57,904 nucleotides of DNA, taken from an uncultured Candidatus Saccharibacteria bacterium (GTDB taxonomy: Bacteria; Patescibacteriota; Minisyncoccia; Portnoybacterales; UBA2143). Where the stretch lies: assembly GCA_964472495.1 (NCBI GenBank), contig CAYYLD010000003.1:1-57904 (forward strand). The letters are read 5' to 3'. This document shows positions 20,686 to 57,700 of the stretch, in pieces; the first letter of the stretch is position 1, and each line of letters begins with the position of its first letter. The position numbers and the translations under genes are program-made. The notes beneath the pieces were generated by a model. The model was not told where the DNA came from. It made no database searches and worked only from the letters and a program-made list of their open reading frames with translations.

Positions 20686-22242
20686 ATGAGAAAACTTTGG
20701 TTTTCTATTTTTATTATCTTAATTGGAGGAGTTTTTCTCTTCCTTTTTTTAAAAGGGACAGATGAAACCAGTCAAATAACTTCTATGTTAGACAAATCTC
20801 AAGAAAGATATGTTCGTCAACCAGCCGTGGCCGGTCAGTTTTATCCGTCGGACAAAGAAGAGCTGACAGAGGTCATTAACCGGTTCCTGGAACAAGTTGA
20901 ACTGCCGAGGACAACAGGACTAATAAGGGCCTTGGTTGTTCCGCACGCCGGATATGTCTTTTCCGGGCCGGTGGCCGCTTATGGTTTTAAGGCGATTCAG
21001 GGGCAAAAAGTTAAAACAGTTATTTTAATCGGGCCAAGTCATCATCAGTATTTAAATGGAGCGATTATTGATGGAAATGACGTCTGGCAGACGCCCTTGG
21101 GTCAGGTGGATGTGGATACTGATTTAAGAGACATTTTAGTTAAAGAGAGTTCTTTATTTAAAATAGATTCATTGCCTCATCAGCCGGAGCATTGTTTAGA
21201 AGTGGAGATGCCTTTTTTACAAAACGTCTTAGAGGATTTCAAAATTTTGCCGGTTTTAGTTGGTCAACTGACTGATGATGATTTGGAAAAGATCAGTCAA
21301 ACTTTGGCCGGACACATTGATGACAAAACTCTATTAGTTGCTAGTTCGGATATGTCCCACTATCCAACTTATGAGCAGGCTAATTATGCGGATAAAAAAG
21401 TGATTGAGGCGGTCTTGACCGGTCAGGTTTCTAAATTACGGGAGATTATTGACCAATTGACCGGGGAAAATATTGCCAATTTAGATACTTGTTTATGCGG
21501 TCGGGAGGCGGTGGAAATACTGATGACTATTGTTCAAGGAAAAGAAGCGGCTGAGATCAAACTTTTGAAATATGCCAATTCCGGCGACGTATCTGTTGGT
21601 GATAAATCGCAGGTAGTTGGTTACTCATCCATCAGTTTTAGCTGGTCCGGAGAATCAAAGCCGTCTTCAGAAATAACTCTGAATCAGGGGCAAAAAGATA
21701 AGCTTTTAGAGATTGCCAAGACCTCTGTGGAAAAATATATTTTAGAAAGCCAAATACCTCAATTTGAAATTAACGATTCGCTTTTAAACGAACCTCTGGG
21801 TGCTTTTGTCACTTTGAAAAGAGATGGTCAGTTAAAGGGCTGTCTTGGCCGATTTTCCTCCGAAGGCGAATCCGCCTCTGGCGGAGAATCTAATATTCCT
21901 TTATACCAGGTAATTTCTCAAATGGCCGCGGCCGCGGCTACCCAGGATGCTCGTTTTAAACCAATTCAAGCCAGTGAATTAAATGATTTAGAATACGAGA
22001 TTTCTGTTTTAAGTCCCTTGAAGAAGATAGACGACTGGCATCAGATAGAATTAGGTAAACATGGTGTCCAAATCAGGCAGGGACTTCGTTCAGGAGTTTT
22101 CTTGCCGCAAGTAGCCACGGAAAACAATTGGGATTTAGATACTTTTATGGGTCAGCTTTGTTCCCAAAAAGCCGGTCTTACCTGGGATTGCTGGAAGAGC
22201 AGCCAAGTCGATATTTACATTTTCACCGCTCAGGTCTTTTAA
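20686..22242 (+). CDS. Fused MEMO1 (AmmeMemoRadiSam B) + AMMECR1 (AmmeMemoRadiSam A) protein with N-terminal TM
   Basis: RQPAVAGQFYP, PHAGY, EHCLEV, SSDMSHY; then GAFVTL, LKGCLG, EISVLSP, GVFLPQV. Confidence 0.88.
   Translation: MRKLWFSIFIILIGGVFLFLFLKGTDETSQITSMLDKSQERYVRQPAVAGQFYPSDKEELTEVINRFLEQVELPRTTGLIRALVVPHAGYVFSGPVAAYGFKAIQGQKVKTVILIGPSHHQYLNGAIIDGNDVWQTPLGQVDVDTDLRDILVKESSLFKIDSLPHQPEHCLEVEMPFLQNVLEDFKILPVLVGQLTDDDLEKISQTLAGHIDDKTLLVASSDMSHYPTYEQANYADKKVIEAVLTGQVSKLREIIDQLTGENIANLDTCLCGREAVEILMTIVQGKEAAEIKLLKYANSGDVSVGDKSQVVGYSSISFSWSGESKPSSEITLNQGQKDKLLEIAKTSVEKYILESQIPQFEINDSLLNEPLGAFVTLKRDGQLKGCLGRFSSEGESASGGESNIPLYQVISQMAAAAATQDARFKPIQASELNDLEYEISVLSPLKKIDDWHQIELGKHGVQIRQGLRSGVFLPQVATENNWDLDTFMGQLCSQKAGLTWDCWKSSQVDIYIFTAQVF
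21856..21885. repeat. 30-nt double-hairpin repeat (family A) in frame in the AMMECR1 domain
   Basis: TCCTCCGAAGGCGAATCCGCCTCTGGCGGA encodes SSEGESASGG. Confidence 0.8.
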
Positions 22243-22344
22243 ACCAGCCGCTTGATTACTTGACACTTATCAGTCAATTTGTTATTTTTCAGTTAATTTA
22301 AGTTCCTTGTCAATCATGGATTGAAACTTTTTGAGGAGGGGAAG

Positions 22345-23376
22345 ATGGGAAAATTACACCATATTATTGAGGCTCAACAGTTTGATAGAAGGGCGCTTCA
22401 AGAAATTTTCTTATCAGTCGATAAGATGGCTGATTGGATGGTTCAAGAAGATATGTGGATGAAGAAAGAAGCTCAGGTCAGTCTTTCAGCCGAGGAGAAA
22501 AAGGAGAGGCAGAGAAGCAGATTGGAGATGCAAAGAGGGGTCAAGGGAAAAAGGATGTTTTCCGTTTTTTACCAGTCAAGTACCCGGACCCGGGCCTCCT
22601 TTGAGACAGCCATGAAAATCTTGGGCGGTGAGGTAGCTGTTTCTTTCAGCAGCGAACAGGAATTTTCTAATACAGCTAGAAAAAAGGCCTTAGAGGATAC
22701 GGTGAGGGGATTGGGACTTCTCTTCCCGCACGTCATTGTCTTACGTCATCCACATGCAGGGGCGGCTGAAAGAGCCAAAGAAGTTTCTTCCGGGGTGCCG
22801 ATTATCAACGCTGGTGATGGGCCCAATCAACATCCAACCCAAGCTATCGCTGATCTCTACACAATTCGGAATCTCTTCAAGCAGATAGACGGTTTGTCTA
22901 TAGCCTTTGTTGGCAACTTGTTTAGCAGTCGGGAAATCAGATCTTTATGTTATTTGTTAGCTGAATATGACGTAGACATTTATGCTGTCTCGCCAGATAT
23001 GTTAAAGCTGCGTCAGGATGTTAGGGACTGCCTGAATAAGGCGGCTGGTGTTCGTCTATTTGAGGTTGATAATTTGGAAGAAATAGTTGGTAAAGTCAAA
23101 GTACTTTATCAGGCTCGTATTCCGGGAAAGGCTTCGGGGGGCGATACGTTCGTTGTTGAAGATCAGATGTTTTCATATCGGGAAATCAAAAAGAGATATA
23201 CCATCAATGACCAGGTTTTGAAAAAGCTGCTCAAGGGGTCAATTGTCATGGATTTATCTTTCCGGCCGGAAGATTCTTTAGATCTCAAGAATGTCCCGTT
23301 GGTCTGTTATACACAAATTCAGAATGGCCTTTTCGTCCGAATGGCTCTCTTAAAGATGATCTTGGATTCAATATAA
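22345..23376 (+). CDS. Divergent aspartate carbamoyltransferase (PyrB)-like protein
   Basis: STRT, LRHP, NAGDG and HPTQ retained; RxQ and HPLP motifs degenerate; start at ATG 22345. Confidence 0.75.
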   Translation: MGKLHHIIEAQQFDRRALQEIFLSVDKMADWMVQEDMWMKKEAQVSLSAEEKKERQRSRLEMQRGVKGKRMFSVFYQSSTRTRASFETAMKILGGEVAVSFSSEQEFSNTARKKALEDTVRGLGLLFPHVIVLRHPHAGAAERAKEVSSGVPIINAGDGPNQHPTQAIADLYTIRNLFKQIDGLSIAFVGNLFSSREIRSLCYLLAEYDVDIYAVSPDMLKLRQDVRDCLNKAAGVRLFEVDNLEEIVGKVKVLYQARIPGKASGGDTFVVEDQMFSYREIKKRYTINDQVLKKLLKGSIVMDLSFRPEDSLDLKNVPLVCYTQIQNGLFVRMALLKMILDSI

Positions 23377-23406
23377 GATAAGCCTGAAGGAAGAAGGAGG
23401 GATAGC

Positions 23407-23622
23407 GTGGCCGAAAATGAGATAGGAGATTATCAATGCCCTAATTGCCTAGAGAATGGTATTTCCTTCGGAGAATTGGAGACTGAATTTGATCGCCCCC
23501 GTCTTCCACGGCTTATGATTAAATTTTATTGCCGTCGTTGTCGAAAAGAATTTGCGGTGGAAGCTGGGGTATGGATCTATCAGGTTAGTCTGGTTTGGTT
23601 TCTTAGTGGGAAATATCCATGA
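23407..23622 (+). CDS. Small putative zinc-ribbon protein
   Basis: CPNC...CRRC; SD-like GAAGGAGG upstream. Confidence 0.55.
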   Translation: MAENEIGDYQCPNCLENGISFGELETEFDRPRLPRLMIKFYCRRCRKEFAVEAGVWIYQVSLVWFLSGKYP

Positions 23623-23625
23623 GAC

Positions 23626-23668
23626 AGGCCTTTGGCTGGTTGAATGCTAGACCAAAGGCCTTTTTTTT
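23626..23668 (+). terminator. Intrinsic terminator
   Basis: AGGCCTTTGG/CCAAAGGCCT perfect 10-bp stem plus T-run. Confidence 0.75.
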
Positions 23669-23700
23669 ATTTTCCTGGTCAAGAGCGTATAATAGAGGTA

Positions 23701-24831
23701 ATGAGAACTGGCATTGCCTATTTCCCCTTAGATTATGGTCAGTGTCCGCGCTGGCTTTTTGAGCGAATGACCCGTTTGGCTCGATTGATTAGTTTGGCCG
23801 TTGTTGAAGAATTTGGGCCGGAAGAATTTTTGAAACGTTTGGCTGACCCGATTTGGTTTCAGTCCTTTGGCTGTGTCAGTGGTTTTGACTGGAATAGCAG
23901 CGGCCTGACGACGACCACCTTGGGCGCTTTAAAGATGGGAGTGGCTGGCTTAGAAAATGAATTGGGCATTTTTGTCTGCGGCGGCAAGGGAAAAACTTCC
24001 AAAAAGACGCCTCAGAATATTGAGGACTGGGGTCAATTTTTGGGCTGGCCAATGAAAAAAATTGACCATTTGGTTGAAGCCAGCAAAATGAGCGCTAAAG
24101 TTGATAATACGGCCTTACAAGATGGTTTTCAGCTTTATCATCATAACTTAATTTTTAGTAAAAAAGGTACTTGGACAGTTATCCAGCAGGGAATGAATGT
24201 CCAGGCCAAAAAGGCGCGCCGTTACCATTGGCTTTCTTCAAATCTTGGTCAGCGGGCCGGCCAAGAAGATTTTGTTGAAGAACCGCATAGCGGGATTGCT
24301 TCCCAAATCAAGGTTAAGCCGCTTAATCTGACTGCCAAACAAAGCAGAAACAACCGTCAAATTTCCAGTCAATTAGTCAAAGAAGGACCGAAAACCTTTT
24401 TAAAGGATATCGATTTAATCCAGAAGAGGAAAGAGGGTCAGTTAACTTTAATGGAATTGCCTAATTTGGAATTTCATCATCACGCGGTTGAAGAAGAAAA
24501 ATTTGATTTAAAGCGGCTTCAAAAAACTGTTTTCCTGGCTCATCAATGCCAACCGGAAAATTTTGGACAGTTATTAAGGATTAAGGGTGTCGGACCGCGG
24601 ACCATCCGGGCTTTATCATTGGTCGCTGAATTAATTTACGGAGCCAGACCGTCTTATGATGACCCGGCTCGTTATTCTTTTGCTCATGGCGGCAAGGACG
24701 GCACGCCTTTTCCGGTTGACCGCAAGTCCTATGACCGAACCTTGGCCGTTATGGAAAAGGCGATTAAAAAGAGCAAGATTAGGTATCATGAAAAATCAGC
24801 GGCCTTGCAAAGATTAAATAAATTTACTTAA
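23701..24831 (+). CDS. DUF763 family protein
   Basis: PRWLFERM, DPIWFQSFGCV.GFDWNSSG.TT, AHGGKDG; start moved to ATG 23701 (past the terminator). Confidence 0.85.
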   Translation: MRTGIAYFPLDYGQCPRWLFERMTRLARLISLAVVEEFGPEEFLKRLADPIWFQSFGCVSGFDWNSSGLTTTTLGALKMGVAGLENELGIFVCGGKGKTSKKTPQNIEDWGQFLGWPMKKIDHLVEASKMSAKVDNTALQDGFQLYHHNLIFSKKGTWTVIQQGMNVQAKKARRYHWLSSNLGQRAGQEDFVEEPHSGIASQIKVKPLNLTAKQSRNNRQISSQLVKEGPKTFLKDIDLIQKRKEGQLTLMELPNLEFHHHAVEEEKFDLKRLQKTVFLAHQCQPENFGQLLRIKGVGPRTIRALSLVAELIYGARPSYDDPARYSFAHGGKDGTPFPVDRKSYDRTLAVMEKAIKKSKIRYHEKSAALQRLNKFT

Positions 24832-24840
24832 TCCATATCA

Positions 24841-25566
24841 ATGGCTAAAATATACATTGGCACCAGCGGCTTTTCTTATCCTCATTGGGGAAAAGGAATC
24901 TTTTATCCAAGAGGTTTAGTTAAAACTGAGCAATTAGAATATTACAGTCAACATTTTCAGACGGTTGAACTGAACAATTCTTTTTATCGTTTGCCGGCCA
25001 TTAAGACTTTCCAAGGCTGGCATCAGCGGACGCCCCAGAACTTTATTTTCGCCGCCAAAGCCAGCCGCTATATCAGTCATGTCAAAAAGCTTAAGGACTG
25101 TTCTTCGGCTTGGCGGCTTTTCATTAGCCGGGCGGCCAAACTGAAAGAGAAATTGGGACCGATTTTGTTTCAATTACCACCGAGCTGGCAAGTTAACGTT
25201 CAGAGATTGGAGAATTTTTTAAAAATTTTACCTAAAAAATATGATTATGCTTTTGAATTTCGCCACCCAAGCTGGTTTTCTCCGGAAGTTTATCGGTTGT
25301 TGAAGAAATATAAAGTAGCTTTGTGTTTGGCTGACTCGGCTGACTGGCCTCATCAGGAAGGTTTAACGGCTAATTTTGTTTATTTACGTCTGCACGGCCG
25401 GCCTTCTCTTTATTCTTCCAATTATACTGATGAAGAATTAAAAAATTGGGCTGTTAAGATAAAGAAGTGGGCTAAGGTCAAAGATATTTACGTTTATTTC
25501 AACAATGATGCTTGTGGTTACGCGGTCAAGAATGCTCAAAAACTCAAAGAATTGATTGAAAAATAA
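24841..25566 (+). CDS. DUF72 family protein
   Basis: IGTSGFSYPHW, TVELNNSFY, LFQLPPS, FEFRHPSW, YLRLHG, YFNND. Confidence 0.92.
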   Translation: MAKIYIGTSGFSYPHWGKGIFYPRGLVKTEQLEYYSQHFQTVELNNSFYRLPAIKTFQGWHQRTPQNFIFAAKASRYISHVKKLKDCSSAWRLFISRAAKLKEKLGPILFQLPPSWQVNVQRLENFLKILPKKYDYAFEFRHPSWFSPEVYRLLKKYKVALCLADSADWPHQEGLTANFVYLRLHGRPSLYSSNYTDEELKNWAVKIKKWAKVKDIYVYFNNDACGYAVKNAQKLKELIEK

Positions 25567-25588
25567 TAAGGGTTAGTTTTGCTAACCC

Positions 25589-26458
25589 TTATTGATGTTC
25601 TTTTAGAAGATGCCCCCTGCGACGACGAAGTTTTTTAAGCCCTTGTTCTTTATACTTTCTGGTTCGTTCACGGCTAACATTAAAATCTTTTCCTATATCC
25701 GTTAAGGTGCGATTTCGGCCGTAATCTGTTCCACCGTCTTGGCCGATGCCATAATAATCACGGAGAGTTTTCTCTTCGCGAGGCCTGAGGCGGGGAAGAT
25801 TATTAATTATTTCTTCTCTTAATTCTTCCATTTGGGCAAATTCTTCTGGGCTGATTGAACTTTCGTTAGCAATCAGGCTGCCAAAAACCTCGTCGGTGCT
25901 ATCGCTAATGGGTTCATCTAAGGAGATTACTGATTGGGAGGCTTGAAGTAGCGTCTTAACTCTTTCTACAGGGAGTCTGCTTAGCTTGCTTAATTCTTCG
26001 GCTGTCAGCCAGCGACCATTGTCTTGAAAGAAACTGTCTCTCAATCGCTTGATTCGGTTGAGGGCTGTCCAGGCGTGGGTGTCGGAAATAGGAAATTCTT
26101 TCTGATTTTCCAAGAATTTATTAACTTCGGCTCGAATCCACCACCTGACATAAGTAGAAAATTTGGATCTTTTTGGTTCGAATCTTTTTAAGGCCTCGAG
26201 AACTCCTAAATTACCTGCCTGGATTAAATCCAAAAAGAGTTTGCCAAATTTTCCATCAAGCTTAGCCCGGTAGTATTTTTTGATAATATAGATAACCAAC
26301 TTTAAGTTACCTTCGACTAGTTGGTTTCGGGCTTCTCTATCACCGCCTCTTGCTTTCAGGAATAATTCTTTTACTTTTTCTTCTGGTAAATGGTCAGGCA
26401 AGCAATCCAGTTCTTCTGAATAGATATCTAATAAACTTTTTCTCTCTCCTGTCTCCAT
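25589..26458 (-). CDS. Sigma70-family RNA polymerase sigma factor (RpoD/RpoS-like paralog without region 1.1)
   Basis: NLKLV, DLIQAGNLG, FSTYVRWWIR, SLDEP, TLTDIGKDFNVSRER; ATG 26458 follows an AAGGAGGT SD. Confidence 0.88.
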   Translation of the reverse strand: METGERKSLLDIYSEELDCLPDHLPEEKVKELFLKARGGDREARNQLVEGNLKLVIYIIKKYYRAKLDGKFGKLFLDLIQAGNLGVLEALKRFEPKRSKFSTYVRWWIRAEVNKFLENQKEFPISDTHAWTALNRIKRLRDSFFQDNGRWLTAEELSKLSRLPVERVKTLLQASQSVISLDEPISDSTDEVFGSLIANESSISPEEFAQMEELREEIINNLPRLRPREEKTLRDYYGIGQDGGTDYGRNRTLTDIGKDFNVSRERTRKYKEQGLKKLRRRRGHLLKEHQ

Positions 26459-26536
26459 GTCCACCTCCTTAATTGTTAAATAACCACTATTTTTAATCAG
26501 ATAATCTACCTAAATAATTAACAAAAGTCAATAGAG

Positions 26537-26752
26537 ATGTTTAAAAAAATTGTTCTCGCTTTAATTAAGATTTATCAAAAAACCATCTCGCCGGACCATG
26601 GTTGGCTGCCGATTTTGCGACTTTTGGGTCAATGTCGTCATTATCCGACTTGTTCTCAATATACCTATCAGGCCGTAAAGGAGAAAGGTATCTTTAAAGG
26701 TCTTTGGTTAGGATTAAAGAGAGTAGCTACTTGTCATCCCTGGAGGAATTGA
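26537..26752 (+). CDS. yidD: Membrane protein insertion efficiency factor YidD
   Basis: IKIYQKTISP, CRHYPTCSQY, RVATCHPW. Confidence 0.9.
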   Translation: MFKKIVLALIKIYQKTISPDHGWLPILRLLGQCRHYPTCSQYTYQAVKEKGIFKGLWLGLKRVATCHPWRN

Positions 26753-26779
26753 CATTTATTAGATTATTTTATATTAAGA

Positions 26780-26917
26780 GTGTTGTGCGTCAGTTGTCAA
26801 AGATATGTACACGTTAGGGTGTAAAAACACGGAGAGGACTACTTAGCTGTCTGTCCGATGCGTGGGGAACTTGCCTATGACGATAGGGAATTGCCTCCGG
26901 ATATGGAAGAGAAATAA
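26780..26917 (+). pseudogene. Possible degraded zinc-ribbon mini-gene (or structured ncRNA)
   Basis: One frame reads VLCVSCQRYVHVRV*KHGEDYLAVCPMRGELAYDDRELPPDMEEK*, with a single internal TAA and CPxR in place of CPxC. Confidence 0.35.
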
Positions 26918-26943
26918 TAATCTTTTTCCGGAGCCGACCGTCG

Positions 26944-26973
26944 GGGTAATCACAAACAGATTACCCTTTTTTT
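26944..26973 (+). terminator. Intrinsic terminator
   Basis: GGGTAATC/GATTACCC plus T7. Confidence 0.75.
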
Positions 26974-27000
26974 ATTGAGCCAATCTTGGTATGATAGAAG

Positions 27001-27648
27001 ATGATGAAAACAGTCATCAATAAAGTAATCAAAATCTTAATTCTTTCTGATTTCACTTTAATTAGCGGAATCGGTTTTATCTCTCCTATCTTTGCTATTT
27101 TTTTGACTAGCCAGATTCAAGGCGGCAGTGTCAAAGTAGCTGGTTATGCGGCGGCTATTTATTGGGTTATTGTGTCTCTGGTTGTTATCCCCTTTGGCCG
27201 GTATTTAGATAAAAATCATGGCGAGAAAGACGACCTTTGGTTTATTATTATCGGCAATAGTTTAGCTGCTTTGGCTGTTTTCGGTTATCTCTTTTCTCGT
27301 CTTCCCTGGCATATCTATCTGCTCCAAGCGATTTATGCTTTTGGCATGGGAATGAATATTCCCGGCTATACGGCTATCTTCACCAGGCACATCGATAAAG
27401 GCCGCGAGGCCTTTGATTGGAGCGTTAGAAGCGCTTTGGCTGGCATAGGAGCCGGGACGACCGGTGCCTTAGGAGGAATAATTGCTCAACGATTTGGCTT
27501 TGATGCTCTTTTCGTCGGCGTCAGTATCTTTATTCTGTTAAGTGCCTTTTGGCCTTTGTTTATCGCTAAAGAAATGATTCCTAGAGATAACCGGGTCGTT
27601 AAAGTGCCGGAAACTAAAGGCATCCAACCATTCCAAACAAAAGGATGA
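27001..27648 (+). CDS. Half-size (about 6 TM) MFS-type transporter
   Basis: FISPIFAIF, GRYLDK loop motif, hydrophobic helices. Confidence 0.75.
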   Translation: MMKTVINKVIKILILSDFTLISGIGFISPIFAIFLTSQIQGGSVKVAGYAAAIYWVIVSLVVIPFGRYLDKNHGEKDDLWFIIIGNSLAALAVFGYLFSRLPWHIYLLQAIYAFGMGMNIPGYTAIFTRHIDKGREAFDWSVRSALAGIGAGTTGALGGIIAQRFGFDALFVGVSIFILLSAFWPLFIAKEMIPRDNRVVKVPETKGIQPFQTKG

Positions 27649-27740
27649 AAAACTTGGAATTGGCTCAGATTTTTTATCTACCACAGCCCCTCCCACCACC
27701 CGTTCTTTTTGCTCCGCAAAAAGAACAATACTTAAGGTAA
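27645..27740 (+). pseudogene. Orphaned duplicate of the polX 5' end (MKNLELAQIFY...) running into a palindromic insert
   Basis: First 33 nt match 27790..27822 (MRNLELAQIFY) with 5 mostly synonymous differences; ATGA-coupled to the MFS stop. Confidence 0.7.
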
Positions 27741-27789
27741 TTTTTATTCGTCCCGTAATTTTACGGGAAATAAATACCAACAGAATCGC

Positions 27790-29535
27790 ATGAGAAACTT
27801 AGAACTCGCCCAGATTTTTTATCAAATGGCTGATTTGTTAGAGATGAAGGAAATTTCTTTTAAGCCGCGGGCTTTTGAAAAAGTGGCCCGGGTTTTAGAA
27901 TCTTTAGAAAAGGATGTCGCCGATATTTATCGGGAAGGCGGCTTGGCCGCCTTAGAAAAGATTCCCGGGGTCGGTAAAAATATTGCCAAGAGGGTTGAAG
28001 AGTTTATCAAAACGGGCCGGATTAAGGATTACCAAAAACTAAAAAAGGAATGCCCGGTTGATTTAGAATCATTGATGGCTGTTGAGGGTCTCGGTTCACA
28101 AAAAATTAAAGTTCTTTACAAGAAGCTGAAAATCAAGAACCTTAGGGATTTGGAAAAGGCGGCTAAAGCGGGGAAGATAAGAAAGCTAGAGGGCTTTGGT
28201 CAAAAGAGCGAAAAGAATATCTTGCAGGGAATTGCTTTTGTCAAATCAAGTAAAGGAAGATTTTTGCTTGGTTTAATTTTGCCGGCCGTTAGAGAAATAG
28301 TCAGTCAGCTTAAAAATCTGCCCGAAACAGGCAAAGTTGAAGTAGCTGGTTCAATCAGACGAATGAAAGAGACCATTGGCGATATTGATATTCTGATTAC
28401 TTCAAATAAACCGGACAAAGTGATGAATTTTTTTGTCCGGATGCCTGCCTCGCCTGACGGCGGGCAAGACGGGCCTGAAGTAGTCAAGGTTTGGGCCAAG
28501 GGACCGACTAAATCGTCTGTTCGTCTTAAAGACGGCTTTGATTGCGATTTGAGAGTTATCAAAAGAGAGAGTTTTGGCGCCGCTTTGCAATATTTTACCG
28601 GCAATAAGGACCACAACATTCTGACTCGGCGTTTGGCCATCAAGAAAGGATTAAAATTGAATGAATACGGTATTTTCAGGGGCAGAAAGAGAATAGCCGG
28701 CAAAAATGAAAAAGAGGTTTATCAAACCATCGGCCTGCCCTATATTGAACCGGAATTGAGAACCAACAGCGGCGAAATTGAAGCGGCCTTGGCTGGTCAG
28801 CTGCCTAAAATAATTGACTATAGCGATATAAAGGGAGAGACACATTGTCATACTAATTGGAGTGATGGAGTTGAGACGATTGCCCAGATGGCCAAGGCAG
28901 CTAAAAAAATGGGTTATCGATATATAGTCATTACTGACCACGCCGGCTTTTTGAAGATAGCCCACGGCTTAGACGAAAAGCGCCTCTTGAAACAAATGGC
29001 TGAAATTGATAGAGTTAATCGACTGGTTTCCGGGATTAAAATTCTTAGGGGTTGCGAGGTCGATATTAAAGATGATGGTTCTTTAGCCATTAAGGACGAA
29101 GTTTTAGCCAAGTTGGACATTGTTCTGGGAGCTATTCATTCCAGTTTTAAAATGAGCAGAGCAGATATGACTACAAGATTATTACGAGCAATCAAAAATC
29201 CTCATATTGATATTATTGCTCATCCGACCGGTCGGCGTATTCAAAGGAGAGAAAGTTATCAATTCGACTTTGGTAAAATTTTTAAAGCGGCTAAGGAAAC
29301 CAAGACCGCTTTGGAAATTAACGCTCATTTTGACCGATTGGATTTGAAAGATACAGACGCTCGACAGGCCGTCCAGGCAGGTGTTAAACTGACTATCGGC
29401 ACGGATGCTCATAGTCCGCAGCACTTACCAATAATAGAGTTGGGCATTGCTCAGGCCCGCCGCGGCTGGGCGACAAAAAAGGATATTTTGAATACCCGTC
29501 CTTTAAAAGATTTTTTAGATTATTTTAAAAAATAG
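27790..29535 (+). CDS. polX: DNA polymerase X / PHP 3'-5' exonuclease
   Basis: HhH (IPGVGK), AGSIRR.KETIGDIDIL, YFTGNK, PHP HCHTNWSDG, TDH, GTDAH. Confidence 0.93.
   Translation: MRNLELAQIFYQMADLLEMKEISFKPRAFEKVARVLESLEKDVADIYREGGLAALEKIPGVGKNIAKRVEEFIKTGRIKDYQKLKKECPVDLESLMAVEGLGSQKIKVLYKKLKIKNLRDLEKAAKAGKIRKLEGFGQKSEKNILQGIAFVKSSKGRFLLGLILPAVREIVSQLKNLPETGKVEVAGSIRRMKETIGDIDILITSNKPDKVMNFFVRMPASPDGGQDGPEVVKVWAKGPTKSSVRLKDGFDCDLRVIKRESFGAALQYFTGNKDHNILTRRLAIKKGLKLNEYGIFRGRKRIAGKNEKEVYQTIGLPYIEPELRTNSGEIEAALAGQLPKIIDYSDIKGETHCHTNWSDGVETIAQMAKAAKKMGYRYIVITDHAGFLKIAHGLDEKRLLKQMAEIDRVNRLVSGIKILRGCEVDIKDDGSLAIKDEVLAKLDIVLGAIHSSFKMSRADMTTRLLRAIKNPHIDIIAHPTGRRIQRRESYQFDFGKIFKAAKETKTALEINAHFDRLDLKDTDARQAVQAGVKLTIGTDAHSPQHLPIIELGIAQARRGWATKKDILNTRPLKDFLDYFKK
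28444..28473. repeat. 30-nt hairpin insert (family B, CCTGCC-type) in frame in polX
   Basis: CCTGCCTCGCCTGACGGCGGGCAAGACGGG encodes PASPDGGQDG; stem TGCCTCGCC/GGCGGGCA. Confidence 0.65.
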
Positions 29536-29545
29536 GGAGGTTGTC

Positions 29546-29812
29546 ATGAAATCTAAGAAAGAATTGTTTGAAGAGACCGAACAGGTTCGGAAAGAGATTG
29601 TTGACTTAGTCAGAGCGCTTGATGGAGCCAATAATAGATTGCTTGCAGCACTTAACAGATTGGAGCAAGATAAACTTAGGCCAAATGAGCTGGTTAGAGT
29701 TCTTGAGGAGATAAGCGGGGACCAAAAATTTATTTCGTCAGACAGGGAAGAAGCAGTCCACGATATCCGTGGCTTAATAACTGCTCTAACAGCCGAACTC
29801 GAAAATGTTTAA
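29546..29812 (+). CDS. Hypothetical coiled-coil protein
   Basis: GGGAGG SD and helical heptad-like sequence; no motif. Confidence 0.55.
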   Translation: MKSKKELFEETEQVRKEIVDLVRALDGANNRLLAALNRLEQDKLRPNELVRVLEEISGDQKFISSDREEAVHDIRGLITALTAELENV

Positions 29813-29838
29813 AGATACTTTATCCAATTCTCTCAAAG

Positions 29839-29876
29839 GTCGCATTATGCTAAACTTGGTAATGCGGCTTTTGTTT
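29839..29876 (+). terminator. Probable intrinsic terminator
   Basis: GTCGCATTA/TAATGCGGC plus TTTTGTTTT. Confidence 0.5.
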
Positions 29877-29878
29877 TT

Positions 29879-30259
29879 ATGACGGTTCGAAAAACTCGCC
29901 AAACAATTAAAAACTGGCTTTTGGTTTTCTTTTGGGCTGGCTTTATTTTTTTTCTTTCCCATCAGCCAGATTTAAGTTCGGGCTTATCGCGGAACTGGGA
30001 TTTTCTTTTGAGTAATCTGGCCCATTTTTTAGAATACGCTGTTTTAACTTTTCTCTTGATTGAGGCTCTTCGGGGACATCAATCAGTCCGGAGAATAATT
30101 TTAATTTTGGCTGTTGTTTTGGCTGTCGGCTATGCCTTTTCCGATGAGTACCACCAGAGTTTTGTTTTCGGACGTCAGGCCTCCGGTCAGGATATCTTGA
30201 TTGACAGTTTAGGCGTCTTTTTGACTGTTTGGCTGGCTAAAAGGAAAGTGATGAAATGA
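29879..30259 (+). CDS. VanZ family membrane protein
   Basis: IFFLSHQP, AHFLEYAVL, YAFSDEYHQSFVFGRQAS..DILID. Confidence 0.9.
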   Translation: MTVRKTRQTIKNWLLVFFWAGFIFFLSHQPDLSSGLSRNWDFLLSNLAHFLEYAVLTFLLIEALRGHQSVRRIILILAVVLAVGYAFSDEYHQSFVFGRQASGQDILIDSLGVFLTVWLAKRKVMK

Positions 30260-30356
30260 CCAGAAATAACGTTGAAGCAAATAAATTTAGAAAAATATTA
30301 TCTTCTTATTTCGGGAATAATTTTTGCTTTGCTAATTTAAAGAAAAGATATTATCT

Positions 30357-30385
30357 TTGACTTTTTAATCATTTTTGGGTATATT
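30357..30385 (+). promoter_or_regulatory. Sigma70 promoter for the tRNA pair
   Basis: TTGACT-17 bp-TATATT. Confidence 0.55.
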
Positions 30386-30394
30386 TATAGTTAA

Positions 30395-30470
30395 GCGCCT
30401 GTAGCTCAGTGGATAGAGCGAAGGTTTTCTAAACCTTAGGTCGCGGGTTCGAGTCCTGCCAGGCGCTCCA
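30395..30470 (+). tRNA. tRNA-Arg (anticodon TCT)
   Basis: Acceptor GCGCCTG/CAGGCGC, anticodon arm AAGGT-TTTCTAA-ACCTT, encoded CCA. Confidence 0.93.
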
Positions 30471-30471
30471 T

Positions 30472-30544
30472 GGTACCCATAGCTTAACGGTTAGAGCTCT
30501 AGTCTGTGGAACTAGCGATGTGGGTTCAATTCCCGCTGGGTACC
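30472..30544 (+). tRNA. tRNA-His (anticodon GTG)
   Basis: G-1:C73 pair, acceptor GTACCCA/TGGGTAC, anticodon arm CTAGT-CTGTGGA-ACTAG. Confidence 0.93.
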
Positions 30545-30660
30545 CAAAGCTGATAATCGAGACCAATTCGGCTTGACAATATTTTAAATGTGATATACTA
30601 ACATTAGGTCAAAATTGACAGAAGGAAGTGAAATTGTACCTTTACAATAGGAGGAAATTC

Positions 30661-31896
30661 ATGAAAAGATTATTTGTTTTTCTGTTGGTATTATTTGGTT
30701 TTTGTTTCTTGGAAATCGGGATAATTAATGCTGTGAGTACTCCAGGCACTCTGAGGTGGACATTTCAAACTAAGGGTTGTGTGCAATCCTCTCCAGCCAT
30801 AGACTCCGACGGCACAATCTATATCGGCTCGAATGACCACAATGTCTACGCCGTCAATCCTGATGGAACGCTCAAGTGGGAATTTGTTACGGGTGGTCTA
30901 ATACATTCCTCTCCAGCCATAGACTCCGACGGCACAATCTATATCGGCTCGAATGACCACAATGTCTACGCCGTCAATCCTGATGGAACGCTCAAGTGGG
31001 AATTTGTTACGGGTGGTGGAATAGATTCTTCGCCAGCCATAGGCCTTGATGGCACTATCTATGTTGGTTCATATGACCACAATGTCTATGCCATCAATCC
31101 AGATGGTACTAAAAAATGGGAATTTTGGGCCGGTTATAAGGTTTCATCGTCTCCAGCAGTAAGATTTGACGGCATGGTCTATATTGGTTCCGATTGCGAC
31201 AGGCTTTTTGCTATCAACCAGGATGGAATTTGTGTGTGGAATTTTATAGGATTAGACATTCGCTCCTCTCCGGCTATAGATTCTGATAATACGGTCTATA
31301 TTAGCTCGGCTGATGATAAGATCTATGCTTTCAACCCTGACGGGACGCTCAAATGGGAGTTTGCTACTGGAAGTGGCTGGGACCTTGAGTGGGCAATATC
31401 CTCTCCGGTCATTGGAACAGATAATACAGTTTATGTTGGCTCGTATGATGGAAATGTCTATGCCATCAACCCTGACGGAACGCTCAAATGGGAGTTTCTC
31501 ACTGGAGCTAAGGTACGTTCTTCGCCGGCCATAGGCCTTGATGGCACGATCTATGTCGGCTCACGTGATGACAAGGTATACGCCATCAACCCTGACGGCA
31601 CTCTCAAATGGGACTTTACGGCTATAGCAGTCTATTCCTCGCCAGCTATTGGAGCTGACGGTACTATCTATATGGGAGCGGATGATGGGAAGTTATACGC
31701 GATATACGGAGATTCAGGAGGATTAGCAGATTCGCCTTGGCCTATGTTTGGTCATGATTTGAGACATACCAGTAGCGGCGGAAATAATCAGGCTCCAATT
31801 GACAATGGAGGAAATGGTGATAATGGACATCTTACCACCTCAAGCGACTTGGATAATGATGGCGGATGTTTCGTTTCTATAGTAGCCTTACCATAA
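30661..31896 (+). CDS. Secreted PQQ-like (BamB-type repeat) beta-propeller protein with GGCF tail
   Basis: About eight SSPAI.xDGTIYxGSxDxxVYAINPDGTLKWxF repeats; signal peptide; start at ATG 30661. Confidence 0.88.
   Translation: MKRLFVFLLVLFGFCFLEIGIINAVSTPGTLRWTFQTKGCVQSSPAIDSDGTIYIGSNDHNVYAVNPDGTLKWEFVTGGLIHSSPAIDSDGTIYIGSNDHNVYAVNPDGTLKWEFVTGGGIDSSPAIGLDGTIYVGSYDHNVYAINPDGTKKWEFWAGYKVSSSPAVRFDGMVYIGSDCDRLFAINQDGICVWNFIGLDIRSSPAIDSDNTVYISSADDKIYAFNPDGTLKWEFATGSGWDLEWAISSPVIGTDNTVYVGSYDGNVYAINPDGTLKWEFLTGAKVRSSPAIGLDGTIYVGSRDDKVYAINPDGTLKWDFTAIAVYSSPAIGADGTIYMGADDGKLYAIYGDSGGLADSPWPMFGHDLRHTSSGGNNQAPIDNGGNGDNGHLTTSSDLDNDGGCFVSIVALP
30787..31017 (+). repeat. Exact 111-bp tandem duplication with 120-bp period
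   Basis: 30787..30897 is identical to 30907..31017. Confidence 0.92.
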
Positions 31897-31955
31897 CAAT
31901 AATTTAAGTTTCAGTAAATTCAAATAATCACCAGACTTCCTTTATATGTCCTCAA

Positions 31956-31986
31956 GGCAGAGTCAAAGACGGCTCTGCCCTTTTTT
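31956..31986 (+). terminator. Intrinsic terminator
   Basis: GGCAGAGTC/GGCTCTGCC plus T6. Confidence 0.65.
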
Positions 31987-32026
31987 ATTGTCAAATTATT
32001 AGAATCTGTTATACTATATACAATCT

Positions 32027-39925: not shown

Positions 39926-40441
39926 ATGGCTTTATTAGACAGATTAAAGAAGAAAATCAAAAAAGAGGAACCTGCCAAGGGTGGACCTGTCTCCGGCGGG
40001 AAAGAAAAGAAAGAGAAAGTTGAGAAATCTGCCAGAGGCAGACCCGCTTTTGGCGAGAAAGAAAAACCTCAATTAAAAGAAGAATCTTTAGTCAGTCCGA
40101 AAGAAGCCGAAAAAGCAAAGCCCGAGAAAATTATTGCCAAACAAGTTCCTCAAGCCTATCGATTAATTAAAGAACCGCAGATTACCGAAAAGGCGACTTT
40201 TTTGAGTGACCAAAACAAGTATGTTTTTAAAATTTCTTCCCGGGCTAATAAGACGGAAATCAGGAAGACGATTGAGGCGCTTTACGGCGTCAAAGTAGTT
40301 AAGGTTCATTTAATTCATGCGGCGGCCAAGAGAAGACGGTTAGGACGCAGTCAGGGCTGGCGCGGTGGCTTAAAAAAGGGCTTTAAGAAAGCAGTGGTCA
40401 CTTTAGCTCAGGGAGAAAAAATAGAATTATTGCCGAGATAA
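39926..40441 (+). CDS. rplW: 50S ribosomal protein L23 with long N-terminal extension
   Basis: [26 protein letters not shown]. Confidence 0.95.
39971..40000. repeat. Family A repeat in rplW (copy 1)
   Basis: CCTGCCAAGGGTGGACCTGTCTCCGGCGGG encodes [10 protein letters not shown]. Confidence 0.75.
40028..40057. repeat. Family A repeat in rplW (copy 2)
   Basis: TCTGCCAGAGGCAGACCCGCTTTTGGCGAG encodes [10 protein letters not shown]. Confidence 0.75.
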
Positions 40442-42191: not shown

Positions 42192-42881
42192 ATGGGACAA
42201 AAAGTTCATCCACTATCTTTACGTATCGGCTTAGGGACTGATTGGAAGTCTCATTGGTTTGGTAAAAAAAGAAAGTACCGGGAATTTTTAGAGCAAGATG
42301 TCAAATTGCGGAGTTTTATTATTAAAAAATTAGATAAAGCTGGATTTAATTCAGTCAAAATAGAACGGTCAGCTAACTCAATTAATATTATCGTTCAGGC
42401 GGCTCGACCCGGTCTGGTTATTGGCCGCGGCGGTAGCGGGGTCGAGGAATTGAAGGGTGAAATTAAAAAATTCCTTCAAAGAATCGATCCGGCCTTAGCT
42501 TCTGCCAGAGGCGGATTCGCCTCTGGCGAAAAGTTGGAGATTCGTTTAGAAATCGAAGAAATTAAGCAGGCCAATTCCCAGGCAGCTGTCGTGGCGGCTG
42601 ATATGGCTAGCCAAATAGAAAAACGTTTGCCTTATCGACGGGTAATCAAACAGGCCTTGAGTAAGATAACCCAGAACAAAGGAGTTCAAGGGGCTAAGAT
42701 AATGGTTAAAGGCAGATTAAACGGAGCGGAAATAGCACGTAAGGAATGGCTTAAAAAAGGAAGAATTCCTTTACAGACTTTGCGTTCTGATATTGATTAT
42801 GCCCAGGCAACCGCTTATACTACTTACGGCACCATCGGGATTAAAGTTTGGATTTATAGAGGAGAGGTTTTTAATCAATAA
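42192..42881 (+). CDS. rpsC: 30S ribosomal protein S3
   Basis: MGQKVHP, RPGLVIGRGG, GRLNGAEIAR, PLQTLR. Confidence 0.97.
   Translation: MGQKVHPLSLRIGLGTDWKSHWFGKKRKYREFLEQDVKLRSFIIKKLDKAGFNSVKIERSANSINIIVQAARPGLVIGRGGSGVEELKGEIKKFLQRIDPALASARGGFASGEKLEIRLEIEEIKQANSQAAVVAADMASQIEKRLPYRRVIKQALSKITQNKGVQGAKIMVKGRLNGAEIARKEWLKKGRIPLQTLRSDIDYAQATAYTTYGTIGIKVWIYRGEVFNQ
42501..42530. repeat. Family A repeat in rpsC
   Basis: TCTGCCAGAGGCGGATTCGCCTCTGGCGAA encodes SARGGFASGE. Confidence 0.85.
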
Positions 42882-43500: not shown

Positions 43501-43768
43501 ACTCAGAAAAGAAAATTCTGTCGAAAAGAAGAAAGGAAGCGGTCGCTTGCTCAAAGGAAAAGTGGTTAGTGATAAAATGGATAAAACCATCGTTGTTCTG
43601 GTTTCTCGGTTAAGAAGACATCCTCGTTATCAGAGAAGATATAAGATTGATAAGAGGTATAAAGTTGATGATGAAAAGAACGAGTACAAGGTTGGTGACC
43701 AGGTAGTAATCAAAGAAGGACGGCCAATGAGTAAGAGTAAAAAGTGGCGAGTGGTTAATAAAGAGTAA
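43484..43768 (+). CDS. rpsQ: 30S ribosomal protein S17
   Basis: GKVVSDKMDKTIVV, RPMSKSKKW. Confidence 0.95.
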   Translation: MDKKNKLRKENSVEKKKGSGRLLKGKVVSDKMDKTIVVLVSRLRRHPRYQRRYKIDKRYKVDDEKNEYKVGDQVVIKEGRPMSKSKKWRVVNKE

Positions 43769-43784
43769 TCCGCCAGAGGCGGAT
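43768..43784. repeat. Half copy of the family A repeat, intergenic
   Basis: ATCCGCC-AGA-GGCGGAT directly after the rpsQ stop. Confidence 0.75.
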
Positions 43785-43825
43785 GCTTAGTTTTATTACA
43801 AAATTAAAATTTTGATAAAATTAGC

Positions 43826-46192: not shown

Positions 46193-46197
46193 AACTT

Positions 46198-54712: not shown

Positions 54713-57700
54713 TACTTTAATACTTTAACGCTATCACATAATATTTTCAAGTTTCCGTCGCGGTCGCTTAAGCGACCGCCGACTAAGACAATTCTTTCTT
54801 CTTGCCAGGCAGTAGCCGTTTGTTCAAGAGTATTGGGAAAAACCAAAGTTTCAATCCGACCAGTCATATCTTCGATTTCAACAAAAAGCATCAGCTGGCC
54901 GGAACGGGTATTGACCTTTTGAATTTTGTTGATAATCCCGCCGACCTTAACCCGGCGACCAATCTGTTCTCTGGAAAGGTTCTGACAAGAAGAAACCAGT
55001 TTGGTTAATCGTTTTTGGTAATCTTTCAGGGGGTGTTCCGAGAGATAAAGGCCGAGCAGTTCTTTCTCCCAACTTAAGTAATCCTTTTTACTGGCCGGCG
55101 AGGCCTGAGCTAATTTTAGAGAAGGTAAACTTTCCGTCTCCTGACCGGCGAATAAACTGACCTGGCCGTTTTCTTTAGCCTTTTGGATCTCTCGGGCTAA
55201 ATTGAGCATTTGGTCTAAGGAAGAGAGAAGTTGATTCCTTTCGCCAAAATCATCCAAGGCGCCGCACTTAATTAAGCTTTCCAGTGATTTTTTATTTAAA
55301 TCCTGTCCGCCAGAGGCGGATCCGCCTTTGGCGGGGATTCTTTCAATAAAGTCGGCTATTGACTTAAAAGGACCATTTCGTTTTCTTTCTTCAACAATTC
55401 TCTCGACTACATGGCCACCGACATTTTTGATTGCCTTAAGACCGAAATGAATTGTCCCGCTGGTTGCTTTAGTAAAATCTTGCTCGCTTTGGTTAACGTT
55501 GGGCGGCAACACTTTAATATCTATTTGCTGACATTCCTCAACCAGGAAGGCAATTCTTTCAATGTCGTTTTGTTCCGAAGTCATCAAGGCAGCCATAAAT
55601 TCAGTCGGATAATGGGCTTTGAGATAAGCGGTTCGATAGCCGATTAAAGCGTAACAGGTGGCATGAGCGGCATTAAAACCATATTGAGCAAACGGCTCAA
55701 CCATGTGCCAGATTTGGCCGGCTGTTTTCTGGTCAATCTCGTTTCTGATCATTCCTTCAATCATTTTTTCTTTCTGTTCGTCTAAGAGTTTTTTGATTTT
55801 TTTGCCGACCGCTTTGCGGAGAACATCAGCTTCCGAAGGAGTGAAGCCGGCCAAATCACGGGCCATTCGCATCAACTGTTCCTGATAGACACAAATTCCA
55901 TAAGTATCTTTTAAGATGGGTTTAAGCAGGGGATGAAGATATTTAACTTTCTTGTAGCCATGCTTGCGGGCAATAAACTCAGGTATGAATTCCATCGGGC
56001 CCGGTCGGTACAAGGCAACCATAGCAATGATATCTTCAAATTGATTGGGTTTGAGTTGCTTAAGATATCTTTTAAAACCCGAACTTTCCAATTGGAAAAC
56101 ACCTGTCGTATTAGCGGCCCGAAACAGTTGAAAAGTCTTTCGGTCATCTAAAGGAAGATTAGCCAAATCAATTTCTTGATCAGTCTGGGCCTTGATCTGG
56201 TTGAGAGTGTTTTGGATAACGGTCAAAGTGCGTAGACCCAGGAAATCCATTTTGAGTAATCCCAAGTCCTCAATGGCGTGCATTTCGTATTGGCTAACCA
56301 CCGTCTGGTCGTCTTGGGTTGGATGCTGACGGGGAACTAAATTATTAATATCTTGCTTGGTGATGACTACTCCGGCTGCGTGAGTAGAAGCATGACGAGC
56401 TATTCCCTCTAATTTCATAGCCATATCAATCAACCGTTTGGTATTTTCGTCTGATTCATAAGCGCTGTGTAATTCCGGTGATTGATAAACTGCTTTTTCC
56501 AAGGTTGAGCCAAAAGGAATCATTTTAGCCACCTGGTCGCAGAAGTTATAGGAATAGTCCAGGGCTCGGCCAACATCACGGACAGCCGCTCGGGCGGCCA
56601 TTGTCCCGAAGGTAATAATCTGGGCGACGTGGTTTTGGCCGTATTTTTTTCTGACATAATCAATCACTTCATCGCGTCGGTCATCAGCAAAATCCAAGTC
56701 AATATCAGGCATGGAGATGCGCTCTGGATTCAAAAATCTTTCAAAAAGTAAATTATACTTGAGCGGGTCAATGTCAGTGATATCCAAAAGGTAGGCTACT
56801 AAGGAGCCAGCCGCACTGCCTCGGCCAGGGCCAACGACAATATTTTCTGATTTGGCCCAGCTGACAAAATCAGCGACAATCAGAAAATAAGAGGCGAAAC
56901 CGGTTTCTTTAATGACCCCGAATTCGTAATCTAATCGTTCCAGGACTTGCTTAAGGGGTGTTTCAAACTGACGTTGTTTGAGTCCTTCTTGGCATAGTTT
57001 TTTAAGATATTCATCTGGTTCTTGGCCGTTGGGCACTTTGAAAAAAGGTAGTTGGATTTTACCTAATTCAAATCCAAAGTCGCATTGCTCAACGATTTTC
57101 TGGGTATTAGTGATAGCTTCCGGTATCTTTTTAAAGTCCTTGGCCATCTGGCTAATCGGTCTTAAGGAGAAGTCGTCACGACGCATAGTCAGACGGGTTT
57201 CGTCAGATAATCTTTTATCGGTCTGAATACCCACTAAAACATCCTGGGCTTCAGCATCTTCCGGTTTAATGTAGTGAACGTCGTTGGTGGCCACTAAAGG
57301 AATTCTATGTTTTTGGCTAATTTTTATTAAGGCCTGATTAACTGGCTCTTGCTGCTCCATGCCCGGATGATGTTGGATCTCCAAATAGAAATTGCCTTGG
57401 CCAAAGATTTTTTGGTATTCTAAAGCCAGTTTTTCGGCTTCCTCAAAGTGACCGGCCATAATCGTCTTAGGAATTTCGCCGCTTAAGCAAGCCGAAAGAG
57501 CAATTAAGCCAGCCGAGTGCTTTTGAAGCAGCTCTTTATCAATGCGCGGTTTGTAATAAAAGCCCTCTAAGTGAGCTTTGGTGGTTAATTGAACTAAGTT
57601 ACGATAGCCTTCTTTGTTCTTGACTAAGAGAACTAAGTGATGAAATTTGTTATCAATGTTCGGGCGGCGCTGGTCCATGCCGTGAGGGGCTAAATAGACC

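Follow-up and report, generated by a model that had tools for sequence, protein, structure and literature searches.

An ultra-short double-hairpin element in conserved genes of an uncultured Saccharibacteria bacterium and its association with GIY-YIG genes beside tRNA genes

How did near-identical 30-nt palindromes come to lie, all in one reading frame, within genes for ribosomal proteins, a tRNA synthetase and the replicative polymerase of a single bacterium? The question is raised by contig CAYYLD010000003.1 of an uncultured Candidatus Saccharibacteria bacterium (assembly GCA_964472495.1), of which positions 1 to 57,904 of the forward strand were analysed (hereafter the window, meaning this whole stretch of 57,904 nt). 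A sequence-only reading of the same DNA had described a 30-nt palindromic repeat family and proposed that it is a mobile, coding-compatible micro-element spreading through housekeeping genes, mobilised by an enzyme encoded elsewhere, for example a HUH/RAYT-type transposase. Our analysis indicates that the window sites are probably copies of an ultra-short, mobile, GC-rich double-hairpin element, here termed element E, which is translated through and would be driven by a small GIY-YIG nuclease rather than by a transposase of that type.

Element E in the window and in other genomes

The repeat unit is 15 nt long, a 6-bp stem of (T/C)CCGCC and GGCGG(A/G) closed by a 3-nt loop. Element E consists of two abutting units, (T/C)CCGCC-NNN-GGCGG(A/G) twice over, and the resulting 30-mer is a near-perfect palindrome centred on GGATCC. 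Six 30-nt copies, one nested 60-nt composite and one 15-nt half copy were found in the window. Comparison with chance expectation confirmed that the family is real: allowing up to three mismatches, the consensus 30-mer matched at 21856, 42501 and 55306 (expectation from 100 shuffles, 0), whilst the 15-nt unit TCCGCCNNNGGCGGA, allowing up to two, had 11 matches where 1.56 would be expected. The more diverged copies at 39971, 40028, 47298 and 54326 (8, 5, 4 and 7 mismatches to the consensus, respectively) were called by register, peptide and mutual similarity, using direct reading of the sites and a repeat finder. The G+C content of E is 70%, compared with 41.7% for the window, and its density, eight sites in 58 kb, is about ten-fold lower in related genomes.

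All of the 30- and 60-nt copies, and thus seven of the eight sites, are genic, and Pfam matches identified their host open reading frames (ORFs) as a Memo-AMMECR1 fusion, uL23, uS3, uL15, threonyl-tRNA synthetase (ThrRS) and DnaE. In agreement with the sequence-only reading, every genic copy (7/7) starts at codon position 1 of its host ORF, on either strand, and encodes a (S/P)A(K/R)GG(S/P)(A/V)SGG-like peptide, ten residues long in each 30-nt copy. Both orientations give a similar peptide, since the unit TCC-GCC-NNN-GGC-GGA reverse-complements to TCC-GCC-N'N'N'-GGC-GGA. The other two frames are free of stop codons (PPEADPPLA and RQRRIRLWR), as they are in other genomes.

Comparison with orthologues indicates that the genic copies are lineage-specific insertions in conserved proteins. 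In uS3 (42192-42881), a plus-strand copy at 42501..42530 lies in the KH domain and reads SARGGFASGE within the stretch ...LASARGGFASGEK...; it folds at -14 kcal/mol (z -6.5). Among 120 uS3 homologues, the ten residues were present only in the window and one further protein (P0002), five residues were present in two others (P0004 and P0005), and none were present in the rest. Alignment to L001, a syntenic sister locus that is 94-97% identical over most aligned blocks and 95.6% identical in uS3, revealed an exact 30-nt indel, TTAGCT^AAATTA in L001 and TTAGCT^E^AAGTTG in the window (a caret marks each junction), with zero duplicated bases. The uS3 gene tree groups the loci as ((window, L001), L214), (L215, L003), and E is full in the window and L214, halved in L215 and L003 and missing from L001, so that this indel is most simply explained by loss in L001. 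The proposed spread of insertions is upheld by the lineage-specific copies, but the uS3 difference between the window and L001 most likely reflects precise loss. Modelling of uS3 with AlphaFold2 gave residues 104-113 a predicted local distance difference test score (pLDDT) below 50 and no secondary structure, and placed them between a KH-domain helix and a strand, in line with the suggestion that E builds new loops in ribosomal proteins.

The uL15 copy (47298..47327, plus strand, in the gene at 47016-47507) stands between a TTT (Phe) and an AAA (Lys) codon. The window, L001 and L126 carry it, as does, separately, the distant L190; 69 other orthologues lack it. Empty sites read ...AAATTT^AAAAAA..., and the TTT^AAA target therefore existed before insertion. 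No target-site duplication was detected at the filled and empty sites of uS3 and uL15. Clean presence or absence of a 30-nt block, for which the sequence-only reading had suggested a test, was found at these two genes but not in DnaE, and ThrRS has 60 nt extra. The near-perfect DnaE copy (55306..55335, minus strand, in the HhH domain of the gene at 54712-57897) reads PAKGGSASGG and folds at -13.4 kcal/mol. Its insert is missing from about 70 homologues, one of them 77% identical, and where homologues read ER(V)xSK^DLNKK the window reads ERI-PAKGGSASGG-Q-DLNKK, a net gain of eight residues with no clean 30-nt indel.

The composite in ThrRS (52892-54712, minus strand), which had been recognised as such, could be refined to 60 nt (54326..54385) reading SSKVSQRRPASGMGGLASGE. 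Its outer copy, TCCTCCAAAG...GGCGGACTCGCCTCTGGCGAG, is split in the first loop by an out-of-frame inner copy, in which a 1-nt deletion puts the frame right again; the three orthologues that extend across this position read KAK^KVT and have none of the 20 residues. The AMMECR1 domain of the Memo-AMMECR1 fusion (20680-22242) carries a plus-strand copy just after the RGCIG motif (21856..21885, reading SSEGESASGG), in which hairpin 1 has decayed to four of six pairs and hairpin 2 is perfect; the insert is absent from 60 homologue representatives. Two further plus-strand copies lie in the variable, K/E-rich N-terminal extension of uL23 (39926-40441) and are common to the window and L001 only. That at 39971..40000 is the most decayed of all and is 93% identical to the uL15 copy, and that at 40028..40057 has the compensated stem TCTGCC/GGCAGA as hairpin 1.

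The single 15-nt unit TCCGCCAGAGGCGGA, previously placed at 43768, actually spans 43769..43783 between rpsQ and rplN, where it lies 5'-most in an intergenic insertion of 61 nt (about 43763-43825). This insertion is missing in its entirety from L001, whose rpsQ and rplN overlap. The hairpin unit is followed there by A/T-rich sequence, and the insertion might act in a terminator-like or promoter-like manner in the ribosomal operon.

As single-stranded DNA, near-consensus window copies folded at -13.4 to -14 kcal/mol (z -5.3 to -6.5), whereas diverged copies gained little or nothing over shuffles (z -2.2 at 47298, -2.0 at 21856 and +0.7 at 39971). This loss of fold shows that solo copies decay by point mutation, the older ones having lost their structure; the 47298 copy is shared with L126, a more distant relative. 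The 39971 and 47298 copies have in common a derived AAG loop and a GTC (Ala-to-Val) codon, so that one derives from the other or both from a shared variant.

The wider family was scanned for by exact match, in one genome per species, with the 28-nt degenerate pattern CCGCCARRGGCGGAYYYGYCTYTGGCGG, for which we estimate a chance expectation of about 0.002. Near-identical copies were recovered at at least 120 unrelated loci, mostly in the same frame, which bears out the idea of a dispersed, coding-compatible micro-element. The taxa and counts in this and the following two paragraphs are those among the matches listed. Patescibacteria supplied most matches, spread over many classes, among them Saccharibacteria, Doudna-, Uhr-, Azam-, Nomura-, Komeili-, Davies-, Levy- and Peribacteria, with others in Omnitrophota, Ignavibacteria, Margulisbacteria, Planctomycetota, Kiritimatiellia and further groups, all taxa being the labels of metagenome-assembled genome records (e.g. 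'uncultured Gammaproteobacteria'). One genome, JBDRMC01, contributed seven loci.

Stop-free spans of at least 100 codons enclosed 103 of 124 sites, in host genes that included RpoC, RpoB, LeuRS, Mfd, RecG, FtsK and another class I synthetase. Frame 0 (SAKGGSASGG and variants) was used by 86 of these 103, with 10 reading PPKADPPLA and 7 reading RQRRIRLWR. In 86 copies the consensus left flank was (T/A)TT and the right flank AAA, typically TT^AA; position -2 was T in 65 of them, and 76 had A at +2. E enters as a blunt 30-nt block without duplication, preferring T^A steps (T at -2, A at +2). Complementarity between left and right flanks within a site did not exceed that of two independent consensus preferences, and targeting of pre-existing palindromes longer than TTNNAA was rejected.

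A T^AA target excludes one phase, since the empty gene would carry a stop codon there, yet 83% of copies were in frame 0, compared with 57% of TT^AA sites in the same host ORFs that fall at codon boundaries (p about 1e-8). We infer that the frame bias reflects target preference in part, and otherwise purifying selection against the Pro-rich and Arg/Trp-rich frames. The sense orientation was likewise skewed, with K..S in excess of R..F, its reverse complement (43 to 9, p about 2e-6), and together with the frame bias this suggests that the inserted peptide is translated. E is retained mainly in the frame that reads Ser/Pro-Ala-Lys/Arg-Gly-Gly twice, forming a flexible loop in linkers and loops of conserved proteins. 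Partner units beside good units covaried strongly, pair 1-15 being T-A in 201 cases, C-G in 37 and changed on one side in 8. Fully compensated stems included TCTGCC/GGCAGA, TTCGCC/GGCGAA and CTCGCC/GGCGAG in the window and TGCGCC/GGCGCA, CCAGCC/GGCTGG, TCAGCC/GGCTGA and TTCGCC/GGCGAA elsewhere. Nested copies were found in ThrRS and in L210.

The same degenerate pattern had no exact match in IMG/VR viral contigs, and one 36-nt consensus query returned no megablast match (28-nt exact word needed) in phage, plasmid and E. coli records; given these results, a phage vector for near-consensus E is unsupported. No prior description of the E nucleotide or peptide strings, of E in the candidate phyla radiation (CPR) or of a link to GIY-YIG cassettes was found in the searchable literature.

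GIY-YIG/tRNA cassettes and a candidate driver

Clustering of all 2143 ORFs of at least 90 aa from the 120 loci among the matches listed returned as its most recurrent family a GIY-YIG protein of about 80 aa (10 loci), and GIY-YIG was also the sole recurrent family among the 113 ORFs within 400 nt of E in these matches. The E-adjacent ORFs, all from other genomes, matched PF01541 with E-values of 1e-11 to 1e-16. A GIY-YIG hidden Markov model detected 14 genes, 13 of them in the E-selected 874 kb and one in about 800 kb of SecY-anchored loci. Among the matches listed, E lay 3-30 nt from seven of the 13 genes of the pattern-selected loci (p about 1e-6), and all seven adjoined tRNA genes.

These cassettes share an order, also seen in mirror image: a truncated tRNA copy with E, 5-10 nt of tRNA sequence, the GIY-YIG gene and an intact tRNA of the same kind. 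E interrupts the truncated tRNA in the D loop (AGTT^GG), the anticodon loop (CTTG^AAAA, TTCT^CAT) or the T loop (GGTTC^GAATCC). As an independent test, four long contigs were picked by GIY-YIG homology alone, and all four carried the GGTTC^E^GAATCC junction, where a copy of tRNA-Asn or tRNA-Gln is broken and an intact tRNA and the GIY-YIG gene adjoin it. A tRNA gene therefore adjoins the GIY-YIG gene in 11 of 11 independent E-adjacent loci (seven from the pattern scan and four chosen by homology). The T-loop junction occurs in L042, L208, L210, L211 and L212, with D or anticodon loops used elsewhere. The E copies that flank one cassette are identical rare variants, and stems differ between cassettes yet stay perfectly complementary through compensatory changes, showing that E is a conserved, structurally kept junction of GIY-YIG/tRNA cassettes.

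The GIY-YIG proteins are 79-85 aa long and comprise the catalytic domain only, with no NUMOD, helix-turn-helix or zinc finger. Their closest solved relatives are the uncharacterised UPF0213 proteins (1ywl, 1zg2) and the structure-specific nuclease SLX1, and NCBIfam holds no specific family for them. In this they are unlike the GIY-YIG endonuclease SegB of phage T4, which is reportedly about 220 aa. The C-terminal part of SegB carries a NUMOD3 DNA-binding motif (PMC2330249). No palindromic junction element has been reported for SegB, and the proteins described here are known from sequence. The likeness lies in the setting, for SegB is a homing endonuclease encoded in a tRNA gene cluster, its target includes the T-loop motif GGTTCRANTCC, whilst many cassette junctions fall exactly at GGTTC^GAATCC, and it spreads together with flanking tRNA genes (PMC2330249). 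Non-intron GIY-YIG insertions are also present in CPR rRNA genes, where rRNA insertions fall mostly at the tips or bases of stem-loops (PMC11270868).

The recurrence of E-adjacent GIY-YIG genes makes this nuclease a better candidate driver than a HUH/RAYT transposase. The stand-alone protein of about 80 aa, of the SLX1/UPF0213 branch, is predicted to cut or paste E; alternatively, breaks that it makes at hairpin-loop or TTNNAA sites could drive gain and loss of E. Cassette junctions would then place E at the hairpin-loop tips of the D, anticodon and T loops of an interrupted tRNA gene, and the solo copies of the window would be non-autonomous members or relics, with the nuclease encoded outside it. 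Pasting might proceed by resolvase-like excision of an extruded cruciform and re-ligation elsewhere, or by break repair templated on another E through 2-3 nt of microhomology. A view of the solo copies as footprints of recombination between cassette-flanking E, akin to solo long terminal repeats, was discarded as implausible for the window sites, where it would transiently disrupt essential genes.

A more far-reaching proposal, which we advance tentatively and regard as less likely than not, is that E and the GIY-YIG genes of about 80 aa form a hitherto unrecognised kind of selfish system. An SLX1-like nuclease without a DNA-binding domain would recognise the double hairpin or cruciform as well as loop tips (TTNNAA, tRNA loops), and would power the spread of tRNA-replacing cassettes as well as the gain of 30-nt solo E by blunt insertion and its loss by precise excision, with the constant seeding, as a by-product, of new loops in core proteins (ribosome, RNA polymerase, DnaE, aminoacyl-tRNA synthetases) across Patescibacteria and neighbouring phyla.

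Several points weigh against a mobile, translated element driven by GIY-YIG. Adjacency is association and not catalysis, and E could gather in neutral pseudo-tRNA fragments made by the cassettes. Six of the 13 GIY-YIG genes in pattern loci, and the single one in an orthologue locus, have no E within 600 nt. As the sequence-only reading had already remarked of a mobilising enzyme in the window, no candidate was found: neither a GIY-YIG nor a transposase gene is present in the 58 kb or in the sister loci, and a DUF3800 ORF at 50308-51168 was not recognisable as either nuclease or transposase. We know of no mechanism by which a nuclease alone pastes a fixed 30-nt block without duplication. For an element of the transposase type, the near-identity of E from phylum to phylum is unusual. 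The genome sample was itself chosen with a near-consensus pattern, which exaggerates how uniform E looks and conceals diverged copies. Translation, finally, is read from frame bias only.

Should the favoured explanation hold, no shorter mobile element has, to our knowledge, been reported to enter essential bacterial genes routinely and undergo translation there. E would represent a concrete, datable source of the lineage-specific loops known from CPR ribosomal proteins, RNA polymerase, DnaE and aminoacyl-tRNA synthetases, and a marker for strain-level population genetics of uncultured bacteria. A possible function would also be implied for the widespread, uncharacterised UPF0213/YhbQ-type small GIY-YIG proteins, along with a family of tRNA-gene-targeting cassettes. 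E inserts affect the ribosomal-protein alignments used in phylogenomics, and the repeats may add to assembly breaks.

Three further observations concern the cassettes. The pseudo-tRNAs of L210 and L211 carry additional palindromes in every loop, and a second palindrome, CCTGCCTGCCGG(C/T)AGGCAGG, found in loops of these E-carrying pseudo-tRNAs (L210:2800-3000, L211:2700-2760), may represent another micro-element family. In L212:3001-3628, two different GIY-YIG genes stand in tandem downstream of tRNA-Gln, with E between them at a broken T loop. Many GIY-YIG homologues lie on contigs shorter than 2 kb, which suggests that cassettes break assemblies.

Competing explanations and related systems

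The main rival, which we consider unlikely though worth serious attention, dispenses with a dedicated enzyme. Where a T^A step is broken, template switching during replication or microhomology-mediated repair would copy in an existing E, hairpin bypass would delete it, and GIY-YIG cassettes would merely make breaks and provide neutral pseudo-tRNA sinks. Derived mutations common to copies within one genome, a flank preference of just 2-3 nt and the gathering of several palindromes by pseudo-tRNAs all fit such an origin, as does the net gain of eight residues in DnaE, which imprecise templated repair predicts. Palindromes are unstable in DNA, and precise loss of a perfect one is unsurprising on these terms. 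What enzyme-free spread leaves unexplained is the presence of one specific sequence in many phyla, the identical rare variants of E 5-10 nt from the cassette junction, and the compensatory upkeep of cassette stems.

The next possibility is the one raised by the sequence-only reading, that E is a miniature element like the repetitive extragenic palindromic (REP) sequences or REPINs, moved as single-stranded hairpin DNA by a HUH (Y1) enzyme, either a REP-associated tyrosine transposase (RAYT) or one of the IS200/IS605 type, encoded elsewhere. E does resemble REPs and REPINs as a short, GC-rich palindrome, often an inverted doublet, with many copies per genome. The two-hairpin architecture, the clean indel without target-site duplication and the precise loss, which suits peel-and-paste single-strand transposition, are also compatible with such an enzyme. 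REPs, however, are extragenic, bear a conserved GTAG, flank a Y1 transposase gene and are lineage-specific, co-evolving with their RAYT; these traits were not seen for E in the sequences analysed. Its flanks are TT^AA and show neither a conserved GTAG nor a comparable 5' tetranucleotide, and among the matches listed 103 of 124 copies lay in long ORFs. Neither the 113 neighbouring ORFs nor the clustering of 2143 ORFs in these matches (top 25 families) yielded a recurrent transposase family, the recurrent neighbour being the small GIY-YIG nuclease beside tRNA genes. E is moreover nearly identical across phyla, and we regard the HUH/RAYT proposal as improbable. E also differs from classical transposable elements of the miniature inverted-repeat type (MITEs), which derive from insertion sequences and have terminal inverted repeats and target-site duplications; E lacks the duplication, and no parent insertion sequence was found for it.

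There is little to recommend a host function at the DNA level, whether as an uptake signal for competence in nucleotide-scavenging bacteria or as a site for a chromosome-organising protein. Uptake sequences and parS do occur inside genes, and uptake sequences have frame preferences; the high density of E (eight sites in 58 kb) and its near-identity in distant lineages would agree with such a role. DNA uptake sequences (DUS/USS) nevertheless originate by point substitution and are kept in large numbers, whereas copies of E arise as clean 30-nt blocks. Solo copies decay freely, to the extent that a uL23 copy folds no better than shuffles, and close relatives are without the copies and without a replacement. 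Density in related genomes is about ten-fold lower.

We give slightly less credence still to a role at the RNA level, in which E would be an mRNA hairpin tuning stability or translation, or a minute intervening sequence cut out of transcripts, which would leave the peptide unmade. Stable hairpins form from either strand, the length is a multiple of three, E is also present in tRNA-derived sequences, and changes in old copies are mostly transitions that keep G-U pairs. Transitions at synonymous positions give wobble pairs automatically, however, and the G-U-keeping pattern is therefore uninformative about selection on RNA structure. Splicing would make the frame irrelevant, yet among the matches listed 86 of 103 copies use one frame and K..S outnumbers R..F by 43 to 9, and the ThrRS composite regained its frame through a 1-nt deletion. 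Old copies lose their structure, and the E-bearing tRNA copies are truncated remnants beside an intact copy. Splicing of the bulge-helix-bulge or another type was rejected on similar grounds, since E ends at the base of its stem without bulges and the frame bias favours translation.

Although Gly codons (GGN) and Ser/Pro/Ala codons (NCC) are reverse-complementary and so restrict sequence space, an artefact or a convergent low-complexity Gly/Ser linker without common origin is effectively refuted by the recurrence of the same 28-30 nt in assemblies of many independent projects, by the inheritance of decayed copies in sister genomes, and by nucleotide identity, compensatory stems and non-coding copies that cannot stem from selection on a peptide.

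A mobile element read through by its host genes is not without counterparts, and E is akin to known coding-compatible palindromic mobile elements. The Rickettsia palindromic elements (RPEs) are likewise palindromic, lie in frame in unrelated, often essential genes within a reduced genome, add surface segments to the translated proteins and have no identified transposase (PMC10969869). They differ in being about 100-150 bp long, in about ten families and in Rickettsia only; E, by description, is set apart by its 30 nt (15-nt unit), by being essentially one sequence in Patescibacteria and several other phyla, and by its link to GIY-YIG and tRNA genes.

In form, though not by homology, the two adjacent hairpins and nested 'twin' copies of E recall mitochondrial double-hairpin elements. 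Those of Allomyces include nested copies and insert into coding and structural-RNA genes. Like E, the yeast mitochondrial GC clusters and the hairpin elements of Allomyces and sponges are ultra-short and GC-rich, reside in AT-rich compact genomes and are polymorphic for presence or absence. Assistance from resident homing endonucleases has been proposed for the yeast clusters (PMC4478555), and repetitive hairpin elements have been described in sponges (PMC2800124). These elements are organellar and mostly intergenic, and the yeast clusters have a putative target-site duplication (AG), whereas E is bacterial, without duplication, mostly genic in one frame and accompanied by a defined neighbouring gene family.

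Other features of the window

The window and L001 differ at several places away from E. Between rplV and rpsC, L001 carries a 212-nt MITE-like insertion (L001:5968-6179, window junction 42189/42190) bounded by terminal inverted repeats of 17 nt, CCCCGCCCCACTTTTTT ... AAAAAAGTGGGGCGGGG; the window lacks this insertion, which accounts for the longer uS3 gene call in L001. A low-GC segment of about 1 kb (50274-51313), replaced in L001 by about 100 nt, contains the DUF3800 ORF; this islet, which varies between strains, is flanked by map and by an ORF of 523 aa without a Pfam match. The adk gene (48869-49516) is 85% identical to that of L001, compared with 94-96% for flanking genes, suggesting allele replacement by recombination.

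Other repeats were also noted. An intergenic 28-nt inverted repeat (86% complementary) surrounds the hairpin GCCGCCTTAGGCGGG at 17762-17912, and tandem repeats of about 120 nt at 30787-31626, within the ORF at 30628-31896, match the blades of a PQQ/beta-propeller. The gene at 27790-29535 encodes a family X DNA polymerase with a PHP domain, and a second copy of its first 34 nt (85% identical) lies 145 nt upstream, where the preceding ORF ends (27645-27678). At 8649-9558, a DUF6922 and AbiEii pair forms a toxin-antitoxin-like module amid housekeeping genes.

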